Shown piece after piece: positions 8,634-53,473 of a stretch of 55,326 nucleotides of DNA. Both the position numbers and the translations under genes were made by a program. Origin of the DNA: a virus (lineage: Duplodnaviria > Caudoviricetes); IMG/VR virus record IMGVR_UViG_3300037851_000330, positions 1 through 55,326 of that record. One strand, given 5' to 3'. How positions within the stretch are numbered: the first letter of the stretch is position 1; every line of letters begins with the position of its first letter. A model generated the notes under the pieces. It was given only the letters and a program-made list of their open reading frames with translations. It was not told where the DNA came from and searched no databases.

Positions 8634-10161
8634 TCACTCGCGCCTTTTTGATAGCTTTCGCCTTCATGTCTTTCAGAAAATTTTCTTGATCCATACCGTT
8701 CCAATCTTGGCCGAAAATTATTCTGATTTTTCCATTAGGAGAAATTTCTATGCATGGGCGCGATAGATAACAGTAGTCGTTGTCAAGTAAATCTTCATGT
8801 CTTCCTGGATTTTGTGAATACGCTTCTACAGAAACAGGTTTCTTGTTAAGCTCATCAACTTTAGACTGAAGATCTCTTATTTTTTGTTCGATCAGTTCGA
8901 TCTCGTTTCCAACGTCTCCTGTTAATTTGTTGTGCTTACCAGCTACTTCGTGAACGTAATCCTCTAGTTTATCAAACAGAGATAAAATGCGCGCTTCAAC
9001 TTGTTGTAAGTCTACAGCCATACCATTTCTTATTTCTTCACGAATGTTTTCCATTTCTGAATATATATTAGAGATGTTGCTGCGCTTATAGTTTTCTATA
9101 AGCTCGTTGATTCCGCCTTCTATAGCATCATCAGCGAGAGCACCTTCATCTAATATTTGTAGTTCTTTTTCATCTTCAGGTAAATACCATTCAAATACAC
9201 TCATTAATTCTGCAGTTAATGCAGGAAGTGATCTGTTGGCAAATTGATGAACAACTTTATGTCCATCTGATACTCTTCCAGAGTATACATCGTTAACGTG
9301 CTTTCTGATACTTAAAGTATACGTATCGATCTTAACGTCTTTGAAGTCTTCATCGTTCATATCTTTAACGATTTCTCGTAACATTCTGAACGCACCGTTT
9401 CCAATTAAAGAAAGTGCTTGACCATGATCTACTTCATACGTAACTTGATTAGTGCCAGAACGAATAATGTTCTTTTCTAATTGTTCATATGTCATCATGT
9501 CTTTTAAAGAAGTGCTTTTATTTAAACCCTTGCTGTCCATGTAGTTTTTAATAGCATGGCTAGCGTAGTCTCTCATTCTGTCAAAAGGAAGTTCGTGTAG
9601 ATCGAAGAACTTTAGATCGTTCATCTCTCCATTGCTTTTTACCTTACCTTTGAATTCATTAACTACAAAAGACTTAGTCTCATTTCCTGCATGTTTGCCA
9701 GAATAAACTTCTAATGGATTTTTACCAACGATTCCAGCTTCTTCTCTTAGTTCACGAAGTGCGCCTTCATCAAAATCTTCATGTGGTTCTACGTGTCCAC
9801 CTGGAGTAGCCCACATTCCATCATCAGTGCGACGACCCAATAGTATCTTGCCGTCTTTATCTACAACAATGCAACCAGCTCCACGACCTTTATAAAACTC
9901 GTCAAAGCTCTTACGTAAAGAAGCTTTTTTCTTTTTTCTCTCTGTTCTGTCTTGTTGTACTTTTTCTTTAGCCTTAGCGTGATGCTTTTCGCCCCACGTT
10001 CCACCAGTGTTGCTACCAGATTGATCTGGAGCGTCTTTACCTGGACTAGTGTATTTTCCAGCTACAGACTTTGGAGGAGTACCTCTTTCGTGAGATTTTG
10101 CCTTGCCATGTAGTATGGCTTGCATAAATCTCCATTGTCTTTTGCTTACTGCTTTTGGCAT
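8626..10161 (-). CDS. Nudix hydrolase domain protein with C-terminal coiled coil
   Basis: Complete Nudix box GGHVEPHEDFDEGALRELREEAGI. Confidence 0.8.
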   Translation of the reverse strand: MPKAVSKRQWRFMQAILHGKAKSHERGTPPKSVAGKYTSPGKDAPDQSGSNTGGTWGEKHHAKAKEKVQQDRTERKKKKASLRKSFDEFYKGRGAGCIVVDKDGKILLGRRTDDGMWATPGGHVEPHEDFDEGALRELREEAGIVGKNPLEVYSGKHAGNETKSFVVNEFKGKVKSNGEMNDLKFFDLHELPFDRMRDYASHAIKNYMDSKGLNKSTSLKDMMTYEQLEKNIIRSGTNQVTYEVDHGQALSLIGNGAFRMLREIVKDMNDEDFKDVKIDTYTLSIRKHVNDVYSGRVSDGHKVVHQFANRSLPALTAELMSVFEWYLPEDEKELQILDEGALADDAIEGGINELIENYKRSNISNIYSEMENIREEIRNGMAVDLQQVEARILSLFDKLEDYVHEVAGKHNKLTGDVGNEIELIEQKIRDLQSKVDELNKKPVSVEAYSQNPGRHEDLLDNDYCYLSRPCIEISPNGKIRIIFGQDWNGMDQENFLKDMKAKAIKKARVND

Positions 10162-12267: not shown

Positions 12268-12675
12268 GTGACGCTAGAACAATACTACGACAAAACAAAA
12301 TTCGAACAGCTGCAAGCTTGGCAAGCTATATGTGGTGCTGCAGACGCAGTTGACCGCATGGGTTTCATATCTAGAACAGAAATGGATTTAGTATATGGCT
12401 ACCTTCTAGATCTTGAACCATGGATAGAGTGGTATCCAGAATATGATTCCTACTATGATCAATACAATAAGTACGAAGATGGGTACTACTACTGGGACTG
12501 GCTCGACTCTGAGCACAATGATATCTGCGCCCATTACGAGAGAAGAGATAAAGCGCGCAACCGCCACTACATAAACGTAAAGTGCAAGCGCGACGCTGGC
12601 CTCACCTCATACAAGAACAAAAACTATAAGTTTAAAAACATCGGTACCCACAAGGGCAAAGGCCAGTACTACTAA
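12268..12675 (+). CDS. hypothetical Tyr/Asp-rich protein
   Basis: 135 aa ORF, GTG start after GGGG RBS. Confidence 0.55.
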   Translation: MTLEQYYDKTKFEQLQAWQAICGAADAVDRMGFISRTEMDLVYGYLLDLEPWIEWYPEYDSYYDQYNKYEDGYYYWDWLDSEHNDICAHYERRDKARNRHYINVKCKRDAGLTSYKNKNYKFKNIGTHKGKGQYY

Positions 12676-12986
12676 TCTACCGGGTCGCTCTCCACATTGA
12701 CTTCCTGAGTGCCGAACGGTCTCCACCGTATGGTCATTATGTATTCTTGCTCGCTGGCATCCAGATGGTGCATGTCCAAGAACTTGAAATAGGGCGTGCA
12801 GTATACGCTCTCAACCTCACCTATCTGCATCACCTGGCAAACCGCTATGAAAGCATCTTTTATTGTCGTGGCCTCTTGCGGGGTCGAAACTTGAATCTTA
12901 ACCGTGTGTGAGGAAGGGGACGGGTAGATGTTTATGTATGTGGGCCATAGGTTGCTGGTGAAGCTCTTACGGGTATAGATGCTCAT
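12672..12986 (-). CDS. hypothetical protein
   Basis: 104 aa, ATGA-coupled to 12983..13276. Confidence 0.5.
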   Translation of the reverse strand: MSIYTRKSFTSNLWPTYINIYPSPSSHTVKIQVSTPQEATTIKDAFIAVCQVMQIGEVESVYCTPYFKFLDMHHLDASEQEYIMTIRWRPFGTQEVNVESDPVD

Positions 12987-13276
12987 GGCGTTTTACCTCG
13001 GCCGCTCTGAATATGTATGTGGCCGGTGTTGCCTCCGCCAAGCGAGTTACCCGTTCGGATGGTAACGAAGCCGGTGTTTGATATGTGCTTGCGGATTGGG
13101 ATGTGGATGATGTTGAGATGTGTGATGTTGGGGCCATATTGGATGTCTTCAGGAATCTCAAGTTGGAAAGTATCGTTAGTGAAGCCCATGTTATATAAAG
13201 CGTATATAGCGTCAGCGATGTGTTGGGTTTCATCTTGTGTTAACGGTTTAGGAAACATGATTGTGTGATGTTGCAT
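12983..13276 (-). CDS. hypothetical protein
   Basis: 97 aa ORF leading away from the divergent junction. Confidence 0.45.
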   Translation of the reverse strand: MQHHTIMFPKPLTQDETQHIADAIYALYNMGFTNDTFQLEIPEDIQYGPNITHLNIIHIPIRKHISNTGFVTIRTGNSLGGGNTGHIHIQSGRGKTP

Positions 13277-13607
13277 TTTTATATTGTACTAAAAGGGGTT
13301 CCCTAGTAAGTACCGGTACAGTTGTGCCTAATAGGTGGGGAAGGGTACGGGCTAGTGATGGGGTGGGGGCCAAATATTTAAAAGTGCTCGTATACAGAGA
13401 ATTCGCGCCGGGGGTACCGCTACCGATTCGTGGGTTCCCTTTTTGCTCCGTGGCCAGCGGGTACCGATTCGATACCTTATCACTACGATACACGATGGGA
13501 GTTGTTATGGAAATGGTATTTTATATCATTATTGGACTATCTACGTTTACTGTTTGGTTTGTACACTGGTTTGACTGATTCGATTATTAAATATAACGGA
13601 GGACAAA

Positions 13608-13838
13608 TTGAACTTATTTAAAAAAGTTTTACCACAGAACAATGGCACTGGCAACGTTAGTCTAACCTACGAAGAATGGGACAAGGTCTTCAGTGGAGAG
13701 ATCATCTATCTCACTGTGACCCACGATACGGAACATAGACGTAGAAGAGTAACCGTAGAGATAACGGACAACATGCTCAACTCTGCTTGGGTTTGTGCTT
13801 GGAGAGGTTGCGTAATAATGGCTTACGCGACTCCTTAA
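13608..13838 (+). CDS. hypothetical protein
   Basis: GGAGG RBS, TTG start, promoter motif at 13574. Confidence 0.6.
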   Translation: MNLFKKVLPQNNGTGNVSLTYEEWDKVFSGEIIYLTVTHDTEHRRRRVTVEITDNMLNSAWVCAWRGCVIMAYATP

Positions 13839-13904
13839 TATGCTTAAGTTATTTAAATCATTCTGGCTTTTACTGAAACGAAGCCAGATCAACAAAGGAG
13901 AGAT

Positions 13905-14111
13905 ATGCCAAGAGCAATCAAATTACCAAAGGGTTCGCGTCCACTCGGACCGTTACCACAACCAAAGAACCTCGTCCGTGCGGACTTCCACAAGAAGACG
14001 TGGATGCCAAGCGACGAATGGTTCGCGCGACAGGTCGTCCAACTCCCGCCACAACCCATACGTGGGTTAGTGATACACGTGGACTTCGTATCACGTAAGC
14101 GAGTTGCTTAG
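13905..14111 (+). CDS. hypothetical basic Pro-rich protein
   Basis: AAGGAG RBS; C-terminal VIHVDFVSRKRVA. Confidence 0.6.
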   Translation: MPRAIKLPKGSRPLGPLPQPKNLVRADFHKKTWMPSDEWFARQVVQLPPQPIRGLVIHVDFVSRKRVA

Positions 14112-14164
14112 AGTTTAAGGGGAACGGCTCATGGATGAGCTGGGTGCAGTGGGCTATATGCCTA

Positions 14165-14180
14165 CTGACACTGCTACGCC
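14165..14180 (+). repeat. 16-mer CTGACACTGCTACGCC, copy 1
   Basis: Exact copies at 14165, 15165, 15448, 27036. Confidence 0.9.
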
Positions 14181-14340
14181 GATGCCTCATTATGATGCAC
14201 GGCTCAACCGAATCGATAGTTAATCACGACGATAATGAATGTGAGTTGAATGGTTCTTTGACAACTGAATAGTTTGTAAGTTTAACTGAAACGAATAATA
14301 AACATGAGCAATGACGCTCATGATAACAAAAGGAGAAACT

Positions 14341-14859
14341 ATGAACAAATTAACACAACGTGCCGCTGTCTACAACGCTACTAAACAAGTGTTTGAGGAC
14401 GCAGGTCACGACTTCGAAGACGGTATGAACGTTGATGCGACCATCAGCGACAGCATGCGCAAGTCTATCATCGACATCGTGTGCGCCGGTTTCGCTAAAG
14501 GTGAAGTCGAGTTGAAAGACACGCCGTCTAACCGCGAAAAGCTCTCTAACCCAACTAAGTTGCGTGGGTATGTAGGTGGTCTTGTGAGCAACTGGTTTCG
14601 CAAAGACGAACGTCTTAACGGTGACACAAAGTATCAGATCAAAAATCCGGGTTCACGTGCAGGATCGACTGATCCTCAGCTGAAAGCGTTGCGTGCCTTA
14701 GCACAACAGTTCAAAGGCACACCGAAAGAGGCGATCATCAAGTCTCAAATCGAAGCACGCACGACTGCAATCCAAGCTGAGAAAGCGAGCAAAGTGACAG
14801 TCGACATCAGCGCCTTACCGCCTGAGCTTGTTGAGCAACTTGGTCTGAACAAACAGTAA
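14341..14859 (+). CDS. conserved phage protein, paralog family A (copy 1)
   Basis: AAAGGAG RBS; clearly homologous to 24656..25165 and 46517..47026. Confidence 0.8.
   Translation: MNKLTQRAAVYNATKQVFEDAGHDFEDGMNVDATISDSMRKSIIDIVCAGFAKGEVELKDTPSNREKLSNPTKLRGYVGGLVSNWFRKDERLNGDTKYQIKNPGSRAGSTDPQLKALRALAQQFKGTPKEAIIKSQIEARTTAIQAEKASKVTVDISALPPELVEQLGLNKQ
14587..14666 (+). repeat. 80-nt exact direct repeat (second copy 24893..24972)
   Basis: AGCAACTGGTTTCGCAAAGAC...TCACGTGCAGGATC identical in both paralogs. Confidence 0.9.
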
Positions 14860-14869
14860 TGTTGAAATC

Positions 14870-14893
14870 GGTGGGGTTAGCAATGACCCCACC
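14870..14893 (+). terminator. hairpin/terminator after family A copy 1
   Basis: GGTGGGGTTA-GCAA-TGACCCCACC, weak U tract. Confidence 0.55.
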
Positions 14894-14917
14894 TCTTGAA
14901 CATTATAAGGGAGGAAT

Positions 14918-15154
14918 ATGAGTCATTACTGTGATTGTGAGCATTGCACTATAACCAAAGCGAACAAGCGAAAAGACGCGGTCAAAGCTAAGATCTTAAA
15001 AGAAGTGGACAACCATCCTATCTGCATAGCTTTGTATGTCCTACTGTGGTCTAACACTTGGAGCAAAACTGAATCGAACAAGATAAGAGATGAGATCATA
15101 ACTTACAGGAAGAAACATGGTCTGATCCCAGCTAAGAAGAACATCAGTCAGTAG
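14918..15154 (+). CDS. hypothetical protein
   Basis: GGGAGG RBS; N-terminal CDCEHC. Confidence 0.6.
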   Translation: MSHYCDCEHCTITKANKRKDAVKAKILKEVDNHPICIALYVLLWSNTWSKTESNKIRDEIITYRKKHGLIPAKKNISQ

Positions 15155-15164
15155 GCCCCACCTA

Positions 15165-15180
15165 CTGACACTGCTACGCC
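15165..15180 (+). repeat. 16-mer CTGACACTGCTACGCC, copy 2
   Basis: Exact repeat; preceded by hairpin GTCAGTAGG/CCTACTGAC. Confidence 0.9.
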
Positions 15181-15210
15181 TACACTACCCACTCATACCG
15201 AATCGATGAT

Positions 15211-15435
15211 TACACATCACCACACGGTGATACTACGGAACTCCCTAAAGAGTTGTCCGGTGGATAGGAGTGTACACCTAAAATGTCTCCCAGGAAGTAA
15301 GTTCCTAAAACAAACAAGGCGGAACCAGTCCGCAGGTGGAATACCAACCCACCATTGAATCCTACAACTAAATAGGGGCGACCGACCAGACGTGGGCGAG
15401 TCATTAAGGGAATAGCTAAAACTATTCCCTTTCTC
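15211..15435 (+). ncRNA. candidate multi-hairpin non-coding RNA
   Basis: Follows promoter motif at 15197; at least 7 consecutive hairpins, four with CTAAA-containing loops; no credible ORF. Confidence 0.55.
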
Positions 15436-15447
15436 ATTTCCTAAACA

Positions 15448-15463
15448 CTGACACTGCTACGCC
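15448..15463 (+). repeat. 16-mer CTGACACTGCTACGCC, copy 3
   Basis: Exact repeat. Confidence 0.9.
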
Positions 15464-15543
15464 CTAGGGACTAGGGGACACGCACACTATACCGAATCGA
15501 TCTATACTATTGGCCAATCGCGTGGCCACATATAGACCACGAC

Positions 15544-15615
15544 GTGAGCCGAATCGTAAGCTCGAGTGTGAGCGGTTTGATAAGTCAAAGCGTGAGCCAT
15601 AATGTGAGCCGAGCC
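15544..15615 (+). repeat. 12-bp-periodic RTRAGY iteron-like array (6 units)
   Basis: GTGAGC/GTAAGC/GTGAGC/ATAAGT/GTGAGC/GTGAGC at 15544, 15556, 15568, 15580, 15592, 15604. Confidence 0.7.
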
Positions 15616-15881
15616 ACACCCCCACCCTTTCGCACACATTTGGGCTTGTGGAAACATGTGATTTCAATGGCTTACACCACTTACCACACTCAAAACACGA
15701 GTGATTCACGGTGAGGCACTAGAGGTGCTTTGGTGGGGTTTGATGGGGTCTGGAAGAGTATAGATAGAGATATGCCTAGGTATATGTCTATTGCGCTTAG
15801 GTATAGCCTCTATTTAGTGATTCTCCCTCTCCCCTTATGCTGTACTGAATCGACATGTTTGTTGAATAGGAGGGATTCTAT

Positions 15882-16157
15882 ATGATTAGTAAACAACTTA
15901 GTAATTTGTCTGTTTTGTCGAATTGCTTCTTGTATGAAGGAAAAGTATACGAGAGGTTATTTAAAGACGCTGATGATAGAGCGAGATTAAGGAAGAAGTA
16001 TCCTAAGTATGGCTTCAAGCATAAGTATCGATTTTTTATGAGCAGCGATGACTATGACTACGTAACAGATAAGAAGCTTGTTCGTAAGCTGAATAAGTTT
16101 ATGCAAGACGAGAGTAAGTGGCTCAAAACATATGTGAAATGGCTTCAACATGGGTAG
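15882..16157 (+). CDS. hypothetical protein
   Basis: AGGAGG RBS, promoter motif at 15844. Confidence 0.65.
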   Translation: MISKQLSNLSVLSNCFLYEGKVYERLFKDADDRARLRKKYPKYGFKHKYRFFMSSDDYDYVTDKKLVRKLNKFMQDESKWLKTYVKWLQHG

Positions 16158-16413
16158 TAGTAGCATCATGAATACATGCTTTTATTGTAAGGCGCAATGG
16201 GGTAAGTGTAAGTGCACAGAGGGTGATGAAGTGCTATTTGTAAGTTGGAGCGGAACCAATATCACCAATCCTGGGGTCTCTGAGTGTGGTCGCTTCTATG
16301 TTAACCCTTTACATCACTACGGAACAAAATTCACTGAATGGTTGTCTTATTGTGTGCACTCTGGTAATAAGCATAAATTTGCTCAACCTTTTATTGAAAG
16401 GAGATTCTTATGA
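16150..16413 (+). CDS. hypothetical Cys-rich protein
   Basis: Coupled ORF. Confidence 0.55.
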   Translation: MGSSSIMNTCFYCKAQWGKCKCTEGDEVLFVSWSGTNITNPGVSECGRFYVNPLHHYGTKFTEWLSYCVHSGNKHKFAQPFIERRFL

Positions 16414-24655: not shown

Positions 24656-25165
24656 ATGAAACAAAGAGATGCAGTTTATGCTGCGGTAACAACTGTCCTT
24701 AAGGACGCCGGTAAACAGTTCGAAGACGGTATGAATGTACTGGAGTCGATCACAGATTCTGAGCGTGATGCAGTTCATGCAATCATCGTTCAGGGTTTTA
24801 AAGCCGGAAAGATTTCGTTAGAACAAACGGAGTCAAACAAAAAGAAAATGGCTTCAGACTCTGAAATGAACAAGTACGTTTCAGGTCTTATCAGCAACTG
24901 GTTTCGCAAAGACGAACGTCTTAACGGTGACACAAAGTATCAGATCAAAAATCCGGGTTCACGTGCAGGATCTTCTGATCCTCAGTTGAAAGCTCTTCGT
25001 CAGTTGTACACTCAGTTCAAAGGTACACCTAAAGAAGCTATCTTGAAAACTCAAATCGAAGCTCGTTCTTCAGCTTTACAAGCTGAAAAAGCGAAGCAAG
25101 TTAAAGTTGACATCTCAGCACTTCCTGCTGAGTTAGTTGCTCAACTTGGCTTAGATAAAGAGTAA
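24656..25165 (+). CDS. conserved phage protein, paralog family A (copy 2)
   Basis: AAGGAGG RBS; homologous to 14341..14859. Confidence 0.8.
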   Translation: MKQRDAVYAAVTTVLKDAGKQFEDGMNVLESITDSERDAVHAIIVQGFKAGKISLEQTESNKKKMASDSEMNKYVSGLISNWFRKDERLNGDTKYQIKNPGSRAGSSDPQLKALRQLYTQFKGTPKEAILKTQIEARSSALQAEKAKQVKVDISALPAELVAQLGLDKE

Positions 25166-27035: not shown

Positions 27036-27051
27036 CTGACACTGCTACGCC
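27036..27051 (+). repeat. 16-mer CTGACACTGCTACGCC, copy 4
   Basis: Exact repeat; preceded by hairpin TCAGTTGCG/CGCAGCTGA. Confidence 0.9.
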
Positions 27052-51969: not shown

Positions 51970-52149
51970 ACCATTTTTTATGGTATTATAATCTTATGAA
52001 AACGCATGTAGTATTAAATTCTATCAATTCTTTAAGACGATTCTTGTCTTATGCGTTATCGTATAGTCGCTTCAATTGCGAATTACGACTGTCTTTTTCG
52101 GTTTAACGTAAAACCGAATCTATATTTAATGTAAAGATAAACAACTAGT

Positions 52150-52226
52150 TGTGGGATAGCAATCAGGGTGACTGCACTTGACTGTTAATCAAGACTAGGC
52201 TGGTTCGATCCCAGCTCCCACAGCCA
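52150..52226 (+). tRNA. tRNA-Asn(GTT)
   Basis: Acceptor TGTGGGA/TCCCACA, loop CTGTTAA, GGTTCGATCC, G73-CCA. Confidence 0.9.
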
Positions 52227-52227
52227 T

Positions 52228-52303
52228 GCAACTTTTGTAGATAGGGTTATTACACCGGTTTGAAGCACCGAGGAACTCAGTTCGACTCTGAGAGGTTGCA
52301 CCA
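52228..52303 (+). tRNA. tRNA-Phe(GAA)
   Basis: Acceptor GCAACTT/AGGTTGC, loop TTGAAGC, GTTCGACTC, A73-CCA. Confidence 0.85.
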
Positions 52304-52340: not shown

Positions 52341-52699
52341 ATAAGTTGGATAGCGAAGCTACTGCTGAGTAAATCAGAGGAACTTCGGGACTCCACAAGC
52401 AGCATAGCAGGTAATTACTGTCCACCGTAAGGTGAGCGACGGCTACAGAGACGAGTCATCAACATGGTACCGGTTCATATCTAGTATGAAAGTTTGCGAA
52501 AGCTTACACTTTGAACGGTTCCAAACTGGGCGTTATGTTGATGAGTGAAACGAGCGACAGCGTATGCGGAGCAACCTCAAATAGGAGCACAATGACTAGC
52601 TTGAGTCGTGTTCGGGTTGAGGGCTTGAGAATAAACGCGAGTTTATTCCTAGACGGATAGTAGCATAAACAGAATCCCGGGTAACGCTATCCAACTTAT
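52341..52699 (+). ncRNA. rnpB: RNase P RNA (bacterial type A-like)
   Basis: 15-bp terminal helix ATAAGTTGGATAGCG/CGCTATCCAACTTAT; 5' GAGGAACTTCGGGACTCCA and 3' ACAGAATCCCGGGTAA form P4 with bulged U; AGTGAAACG, GAGCAA and CCTAGA conserved-region-like motifs. Confidence 0.88.
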
Positions 52700-52724: not shown

Positions 52725-52801
52725 GCTCTCGTCGCCTAATGTATATGGCACTTCGCTACGAACGAAGAATAATGTTGGTTAAATTCCAGCCGAGAGTACC
52801 A
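52725..52801 (+). tRNA. tRNA-Arg(ACG)
   Basis: Acceptor GCTCTCG/CGAGAGT, stem CTTCG-CTACGAA-CGAAG, atypical T loop TTAAATT, CCA. Confidence 0.85.
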
Positions 52802-53396: not shown

Positions 53397-53473
53397 ACTC
53401 CTGTAGCCCAACGGCAGAGGCAGTCGGCTTAAAATCGACAAAGTGATGGGTTCGAATCCCTCCAGGAGTACCA
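53397..53473 (+). tRNA. tRNA-Leu(TAA) with short variable loop
   Basis: Acceptor ACTCCTG/CAGGAGT, GTCGG-CTTAAAA-TCGAC, GGTTCGAATCC, CCA. Confidence 0.85.

Follow-up and report, generated by a model that had tools for sequence, protein, structure and literature searches.

A candidate hairpin-plus-pseudoknot RNA module in a predicted ORF-less early transcription unit of an uncultured phage with a contractile tail

The window analyzed here, a contig of 55,326 bases taken at its full length, is a fragment of a contractile-tailed phage and was estimated by CheckV to be about 33% complete. Its 731-aa tail sheath protein matches phrog_279, with the best cultured relative being Myxococcus phage Mx1 (32% identity). 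Long ORFs on the minus strand stop near 11.0 kb, and most ORFs between about 12.3 and 38 kb lie on the plus strand; among the ORFs called from 12268 to about 38000, the single minus-strand exception is a 104-aa ORF (12672 to 12986). The stretch under study, 15211 to 15446, lies in a zone (12 to 16 kb) with a GC content of 0.45 to 0.46, compared with about 0.37 elsewhere in the contig, and this zone is predicted to consist of many very short transcription units. Upstream of the plus-strand early units, about 470 GC-rich bases (12990 to 13460) contain no convincing ORF, and the first promoter box follows at 13464. Very short hydrophobic ORFs (23 and 21 aa), each with a good ribosome-binding site, stand directly behind promoter boxes in the window (13507 to 13578) and in the relative G001, where the counterpart is located on the reverse strand of locus L046 (about 2789 to 2854 of the oriented locus); the early array is common to both. 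The DNA from 14300 to 16200 and the protein of a 182-aa ORF have no match among phage GenBank records. In addition, the 182-aa protein used as a query against IMG/VR and the JGI metagenomes yielded no confirmed relative, and a 20-mer from the RNA region gave 0 matches in the JGI metagenomes.

The unit preceding the stretch carries a 78-aa ORF and ends in the hairpin GTCAGTAGG/CCTACTGAC (15147 to 15169), which overlaps the first bases of an exact copy of the 16-mer CTGACACTGCTACGCC (15165 to 15180). This copy is followed by the promoter-like box ACCGAATCGAT (15197 to 15207) and by the hairpin H1 (ATCACC acac GGTGAT, 15216 to 15231). Behind it lies H2, called P0 below (AACUC/GAGUU with the loop CCUAAA, 15239 to 15254), then the purine G15255 and the core of a putative pseudoknot (15256 to 15290), which was recognized by the comparison of six lineages and corresponds to H3 (15267 to 15290). 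Hairpins specific to the window occupy 15292 to 15402 and include two further CUAAA copies: H4 (15292 to 15306), H5 (15319 to 15333), H6 (15335 to 15353), H7 (15361 to 15376), and one more (about 15378 to 15402). The predicted intrinsic terminator (15406 to 15441) combines a 10-bp stem with the loop CUAAAA (H8, 15406 to 15431) and the tail TCTCATTTCC. A second exact copy of the 16-mer (15448 to 15463) opens the next cassette, whose unit has an exact-consensus promoter-like box (15491 to 15501); all of these features are on the plus strand. In this order, 15197 to 15441 would represent an early noncoding transcription unit, in which a phage-type promoter box is followed by a 5' hairpin, a structured body, and an intrinsic terminator, and would fill one slot in an array of terminator/16-mer/promoter cassettes. 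The box at 15491 leads a second ORF-less unit (15502 to 15844), which contains four to five GTGAGCC/GTGAGCG repeats, is about 93 to 95% identical in relatives from two runs with a 24-nt deletion at 15568, and has no Rfam match.

The promoter motif that the original prediction placed at 15197 is a recurring box of this phage. Its 10-mer core, CCGAATCGAT, has 34 matches with up to two mismatches on the plus strand of the window versus 14 on the minus strand, and the 12-mer form has 23 matches in the window versus 3.1 expected. By inspection, at least 12 plus-strand copies are located 20 to 40 nt upstream of a Shine-Dalgarno sequence and start codon. The copy at 52114 precedes a cluster of tRNA genes (52150 to 52303, 52725 to 52801, and 53397 to 53473), among which lies a full-length bacterial class A RNase P RNA (52346 to 52698; 141.8 bits, E 1.4e-43). 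An RNase P RNA was also found in two of the five complete relatives searched, G006 and G007, at about 178 to 180 bits.

The stretch had been described as ORF-poor, with coding on the minus strand named as an observation that would speak against an RNA. Two ORFs do overlap it, a 50-aa ORF on the plus strand (15206 to 15358) and a 75-aa ORF on the minus strand (15210 to 15437), both without support, and the description holds in the sense that there is no credible gene. The minus-strand ORF covers the entire region, and its codon score of 0.05 bits/codon exceeds the mean of shadow ORFs (-0.09 ± 0.19, versus 0.34 ± 0.10 for genes). However, a search of 5.8 billion protein clusters returned no homologue of it, and its Shine-Dalgarno-like AGGAA abuts the ATG, so that the ribosome-binding site is misplaced. 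The plus-strand ORF scores -0.37 bits/codon, a tblastx comparison of the region with related loci totaling 0.6 Mb had no match at an E value of <0.1, and the neighboring ORFs are on the plus strand apart from the 104-aa one. In addition, the helix covariation described below disregards both reading frames. It is therefore very improbable that either ORF is a real gene, and these observations support 15211 to 15446 as a predicted promoter-to-terminator unit without a credible gene.

The 16-mer occurs exactly at four positions in the window (14165 to 14180, 15165 to 15180, 15448 to 15463, and 27036 to 27051; 0.01 expected) and in 66 IMG/VR stretches. With up to two mismatches, 4 to 10 copies are present in each of seven complete relatives of 166 to 177 kb, mostly co-oriented and clustered within 10 to 20 kb; Myxococcus phage Mx1 has no 16-mer. 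Outside the window, the loci concerned are L001 to L066 and L235 to L254, and some lineages have TTGACAC... instead. The 108 instances share one layout, in which a GC-rich hairpin, in many cases a clear terminator, precedes the 16-mer and a variable spacer leads on to a promoter-like box, a leader, and a gene. The box behind the 16-mer differs by lineage, its distance from the 16-mer varies, and conservation ends sharply at the edges of the 16-mer, with none at a fixed distance 3' of it. The sequence starts with C/TTGACA and was considered as a -35 box; this was rejected, as TANNNT follows at 16 to 18 nt in only 8 of 105 instances and no sigma-70 -10 element stands at the right spacing. The 16-mer could instead be part of the terminator, a processing site, or a protein-binding site. 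A string search of the literature for the 16-mer and the core motifs, with supplements outside its scope, returned nothing or only unrelated primers. The two copies that the original prediction took as the bounds of the RNA are exact on both sides, but they belong to the clade-wide cassette and are not an RNA-specific delimiter. A sequence from run X3 is identical to the window over 15165 to 15458, while a 98%-identical strain from run X2 matches 15107 to 15349 and diverges after 15349. In a relative from run X4, a different sequence precedes the 16-mer at 15448, which makes the boundary mosaic. In the array of G001 (bases 400 to 2760 of the oriented locus), every slot examined contains an ORF.

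Cassettes of a related kind are the PeSLs of T4-like phages, terminator/promoter units that mediate gene shuffling in hyperplastic regions (PMC4122927). PeSLs and the present cassettes are both short composite stem-loop/promoter units, recurring in a variable early region next to unrelated small genes, and both coincide with insertion or replacement boundaries between relatives, such as the mosaic boundary in run X4. The present cassettes differ in having an invariant, sharp-edged 16-mer between hairpin and promoter throughout the clade, with a promoter box that changes by lineage, and in that the sigma-70 early promoter of PeSLs (-35, 17-nt spacer, and -10) has its match in only those 8 of 105 instances. 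The comparison concerns the cassette frame and not the RNA.

A multicopy family of early proteins of 170 to 180 aa is encoded beside the 16-mer cassettes in nearly all loci, with two members in the window (14341 to 14859 and 24656 to 25162), and is characterized by the motif SNW(L/F)RKD..LNG....KNPGSR.G..D. The 239 metagenomic homologues of the family all lack an informative name, and neither Pfam nor PHROG gave a match. The AlphaFold model is confident and all-helical (pLDDT, 88.8) and has no fold match in the PDB.

All eight hairpins listed in the original prediction are present in the minimum-free-energy fold of 15208 to 15440. On the plus strand, the fold of 15211 to 15446 reaches a z value of -3.38 (-70.2 kcal/mol), a stability matched by 1 of 200 shuffles; the z value of the minus strand is -2.50. 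CTAAA occurs six times in this stretch versus 0.6 expected, which makes it the densest CTAAA cluster in the window, and CCTAAA occurs four times there versus 23 times in the whole window. The predicted placement of four CTAAA copies in the loops of different stems was confirmed (H2, H3, H7, and H8), and the sixth copy is located at 15441. Likewise, ACCA lies in two loops (H5 and H6), with five copies in total, and the seven GGA copies fall in stems, stem-loop borders, or linkers, with none centered in a loop. At least six CTAAA were reached in 1 of 5,000 dinucleotide shuffles, although 15 of 2,000 shuffles contain some 5-mer six times. No tandem or direct repeats were detected within 15211 to 15446 by Tandem Repeats Finder and a direct-repeat scan. 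By eye, GUCCGCAGGUGGAAUACCAACCCACC...CAACUAAAUAGG (15326 to 15376) resembles a degenerate second copy of the core GUCCGGUGGAUA...CACCUAAAAUG, and such a duplication would explain part of the CUAAA excess. In the window, antisense targets of CACCUAAAAUG are fewer than expected by chance. The only candidate in the clade for another CTAAA-dense element (in L046) is coding sequence of the 170- to 180-aa family. Two further ideas were rejected: mimicry of the anticodon loop of the phage tRNA-Leu(UAA) rests on a few letters shared by CUUAAAA and CCUAAAA, and mimicry of CRISPR repeats by the hairpins likewise has support limited to a few shared letters.

Only H2 and H3 (15239 to 15290) recur elsewhere, and together they form one module present in six lineages; H4 to H8 have no counterpart in the relatives. 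A BLAST search of the RNA against five relatives gave a single match of 31 nt (E 0.0015) in G002, within a 199-nt ORF-less slot that is bordered by two exact 16-mers and has a promoter box upstream. Four more lineages came from approximate-match and pattern searches: G007, G010, L235, and the G004 group, which comprises four contigs with the same sequence. The module occurs exactly once per record in all five records searched whole, lies 91 to 147 nt 3' of a 16-mer in the six lineages, and in each of them adjoins a gene of the 170- to 180-aa family; in the window, G002, G004, G007, and G010, it stands behind the first or second 16-mer of the array. The pattern search did not find it in four of the seven complete relatives or in one fragment, indicating that the module is accessory. 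No additional members emerged from a descriptor search covering 1.17 Mb of clade loci or from looser patterns applied to the collected loci. The pattern CCGGTGGATAN{6,16}CCTAAAA matched 22 stretches, of which 1 was real, and the covariance model R1, built from the window and G007, returned only known members with weak scores and missed G010. By inspection, hairpins of other sequences stand at the position of H1 in G002, G004, G010, and L235.

The module has a constant order: the P0 hairpin, one purine, UCCGGNG, and the helix S2, whose loop contains CNCC-UAAAAUG. P0 has 4 to 5 bp and ends exactly one purine before UCCGG in all six lineages, with the arms AACUC, GCAU, GUCAG, GAGU, GCUA, and AGUC and their complements; its summed length over five lineages was reached by none of 20,000 shuffles, and a P0 was found in 9 of the 119 bacterial pattern matches listed. 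S2 has 4 to 9 bp and is complementary in all six lineages despite six unrelated arm sequences (GGAG/CUCC, CUGUG/CACAG, UGGUGGU/ACCACCA, GACACA/UGUGUC, GCAGUUCA/UGAACUGC, and UGACAGUUU/AAACUGUCA); it sums to 30 bp over five lineages, and again none of 20,000 shuffles scored as high. P0 and S2 thus covary across the homologues collected. RNAalifold on a MAFFT alignment captured only the third helix, S1, because P0 and S2 are not column-aligned, and their covariation was therefore counted by script. S1 joins the linker GGNG to the loop CNCC, and its third pair varies among U-A (three lineages), C-G (two), and A-U (one). In the window, GGUG (15259 to 15262) pairs with CACC (15275 to 15278) in S1, GGAG (15267 to 15270) pairs with CUCC (15287 to 15290) in S2, and the A-rich third loop is UAAAAUGU (15279 to 15286). 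The GGNG/CNCC covariation and the crossing of S2 by S1 indicate a putative H-type pseudoknot with an A-rich third loop, with the proviso that S1 has only 4 bp and that an alternative inner helix of 2 to 3 bp (CA/UG) is possible.

The control set consisted of sequences that match the same pattern by chance, with at least 120 matches in bacterial genomes; none of those listed carries the 16-mer. Both helices are present in six of the six clade members, compared with 2 of the 119 bacterial matches listed and none of 19 unrelated IMG/VR matches. The S2 helix of the window, at 4 bp, is the shortest of the six and on its own is at background level (53 of the 119 bacterial matches listed). The six lineages include sisters (G007 with G010, and G004 with L235), and the invariance of UCCGG and CCUAAAAUG is partly by construction, since the search patterns fixed those letters. 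The Rfam searches place the region in no known family, Csr/Rsm included: none was found at the gathering score in 15150 to 15500, only a chance snoRNA match (15780 to 15892) appeared in 12900 to 15900 at E values up to 5, and the G002 locus gave no match at the gathering score or at E values up to 5. Together, these comparisons support the view that part of the stretch is under selection for RNA structure. The hairpin and pseudoknot kept in six lineages suggest that the conserved part is probably a real structured RNA.

The functional core would then be the module of about 55 nt at 15239 to 15290, composed of P0, one purine, UCCGGUG, and S2 with the loop CACC-UAAAAUG, in which the loop CACC would pair back to the linker GGUG and close the H-type pseudoknot with its A-rich third loop. 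It may act as a plus-strand RNA that presents UCCGG and CCUAAAAUG to a conserved partner. What follows the module differs among the lineages. In the window, five further hairpins and then a terminator come 3' of it, and in G002, a terminator follows immediately, so that in these two lineages the module may be released as a free RNA of about 150 to 225 nt. In G004, a second promoter box stands 7 nt after the module and is followed by a gene of the 170- to 180-aa family. In the three other lineages, a ribosome-binding site and an ORF lie 10 to 25 nt past the module, and there an mRNA may carry it at its 5' terminus; the three ORFs are unrelated, being an MRGHKF-type ORF in G007, another ORF in G010, and a 21-aa ORF in L235. 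By inspection, frames that start at the AUG of this conserved loop extend for 3, 5, 10, and about 34 codons, and the one in G007 continues in frame into the downstream gene; there is no conserved peptide. In L235, the pseudoknot leader and the 21-aa ORF are followed by a sequence that resembles a tRNA, with a T-arm and CCA end (reverse strand, about 8700 to 8780 of the oriented locus).

A self-contained RNA module that binds a host or phage protein is compatible with all six of these contexts, and on the basis of sequence comparison, we lean modestly toward this putative function. A cis-acting leader, in the form of a ligand- or protein-controlled attenuator, a translational operator, or a processive antitermination RNA like HK022 put or the Bacillus EAR, fits about as many contexts and is a possible, though clearly less probable, explanation. 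The module is promoter proximal in all six lineages, it is at the first or second 16-mer position in the window, G002, G004, G007, and G010, terminators stand 3' of it in the window and G002, and a leader fits equally well where a ribosome-binding site and ORF follow directly, as in G007, G010, and L235. Its topology with an A-rich third loop is also that of small pseudoknot aptamers. preQ1-I and SAM-II are H-type pseudoknot aptamers with an A-rich 3' loop, and the module shares with them the succession of helix 1, short loop, helix 2, helix 1', A-rich loop, and helix 2', the size of about 35 to 45 nt, and the promoter-proximal position. However, the module has an additional conserved hairpin, P0, 5' of the pseudoknot, and the genes downstream of it are unrelated between lineages, unlike the constant gene class that follows a metabolite riboswitch. 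Among Rfam riboswitch and leader families, the models of preQ1-I/II/III, SAM-II/V, fluoride, guanidine-III, and others gave no match in 12900 to 15900 or in G002 at E values up to 5. HK022 put and the Bacillus EAR are processive antitermination RNAs of about 60 to 70 nt just behind an early promoter, with terminators downstream, and the predicted module resembles them in this layout alone. Of the seven complete relatives sharing the terminator-rich array, four lack the module, which speaks against a core role in antitermination. In addition, the second promoter in G004 and the new promoters past the terminators of the window and G002 make the downstream genes independent of read-through.

The unit might also be a relic, the leader of a lost gene in which only the pseudoknot module, or nothing, is functional and H4 to H8 and the extra CUAAA copies have arisen by drift. 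The ORFs behind the module in three lineages, the mosaic cassette boundaries, and the unconserved 3' half would all agree with such a history. The retention of an exact-consensus promoter box and a strong terminator, the fold that is more stable than shuffles, and the same ORF-less layout found independently in G002 do not, and we regard a relic as improbable.

The original prediction saw in the stretch a decoy RNA whose repeated CUAAA loops would bind a protein. The structured ORF-less unit was borne out, and the CUAAA of H3 falls in the most conserved sequence, CNCC-UAAAAUG; what was not borne out is the conservation of the repeated loops. The five other lineages each have one CUAAA, that of the pseudoknot, the H2 loop is different in every lineage, H4 to H8 lack counterparts, and even the 98%-identical strain diverges after 15349. 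The extra loops are thus specific to the window, and a sponge function of the flagged RNA is only weakly suggested by its sequence. In such a function, several CUAAA loops would titrate a host regulator or defense protein in the manner of CsrB/RsmZ or of pseudo-ToxI. The CTAAA enrichment is real, four copies do lie in loops, 15326 to 15353 resembles by eye a degenerate second copy of GUCCGGUGGAUA...CACC, and the enriched 5-mer falls within the conserved core CCUAAAAUG, which was identified independently, so that the extra copies could be added sites for the same partner. This multiplicity is nevertheless absent from five lineages, the P0 loop is unconserved, the 3' half is already replaced in a close strain, and the presence of some 5-mer six times in 15 of 2,000 shuffles and the failure to match Rfam weigh on the same side. 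The likeness to CsrB/RsmZ, several hairpins with the same short loop motif, is confined to this window, and the motif is CUAAA rather than the GGA that is exposed in many loops of those RNAs; here, GGA lies mostly in stems and is loop centered in none of the seven cases. Type III antitoxin RNAs (ToxI) and the pseudo-ToxI decoys of phages provide a precedent for a phage RNA that neutralizes a host defense protein, and the module is similar to them in being a pseudoknot-forming RNA with an exposed A-rich stretch. However, tandem repeats of 34 to 45 nt are lacking, and the unit is therefore not a ToxI-like array; a toxin gene was not identified either. A multivalent CUAAA sponge is accordingly quite unlikely and conceivable only as a specialty of the lineage of the window. 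Under the preferred reading of a self-contained module, the extra CUAAA loops would have been added in this lineage only, possibly as further sites for the same partner.

A broader interpretation is that the module serves as the recognition core in a phage early RNA of a class not described before, bound by a conserved host or phage protein such as a ribonuclease or defense effector that recognizes CCUAAAAUG, that its motif has been multiplied here into a multivalent decoy, and that, with the invariant 16-mer, it would be part of a novel way to organize and control early transcription in a clade of uncultured myoviruses of about 170 kb. This combination is speculative and, taken as a whole, rather unlikely. 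If the unit proves silent, it would serve as a warning that motif repetition without relatives is weak evidence for a sponge. The 16-mer is kept letter for letter while the adjacent promoters diverge, which points to an undescribed conserved sequence-specific partner, and the cassette frame may matter more broadly. Structured RNAs of phages are few and come mostly from cultured model phages. With helices that covary in six lineages, a constant location within the early region, and no counterpart in Rfam, the module is a testable candidate for an RNA-based early function, which may lie in regulation, antitermination, or counterdefense, in widespread uncultured phages of freshwater, wetland, and soil.
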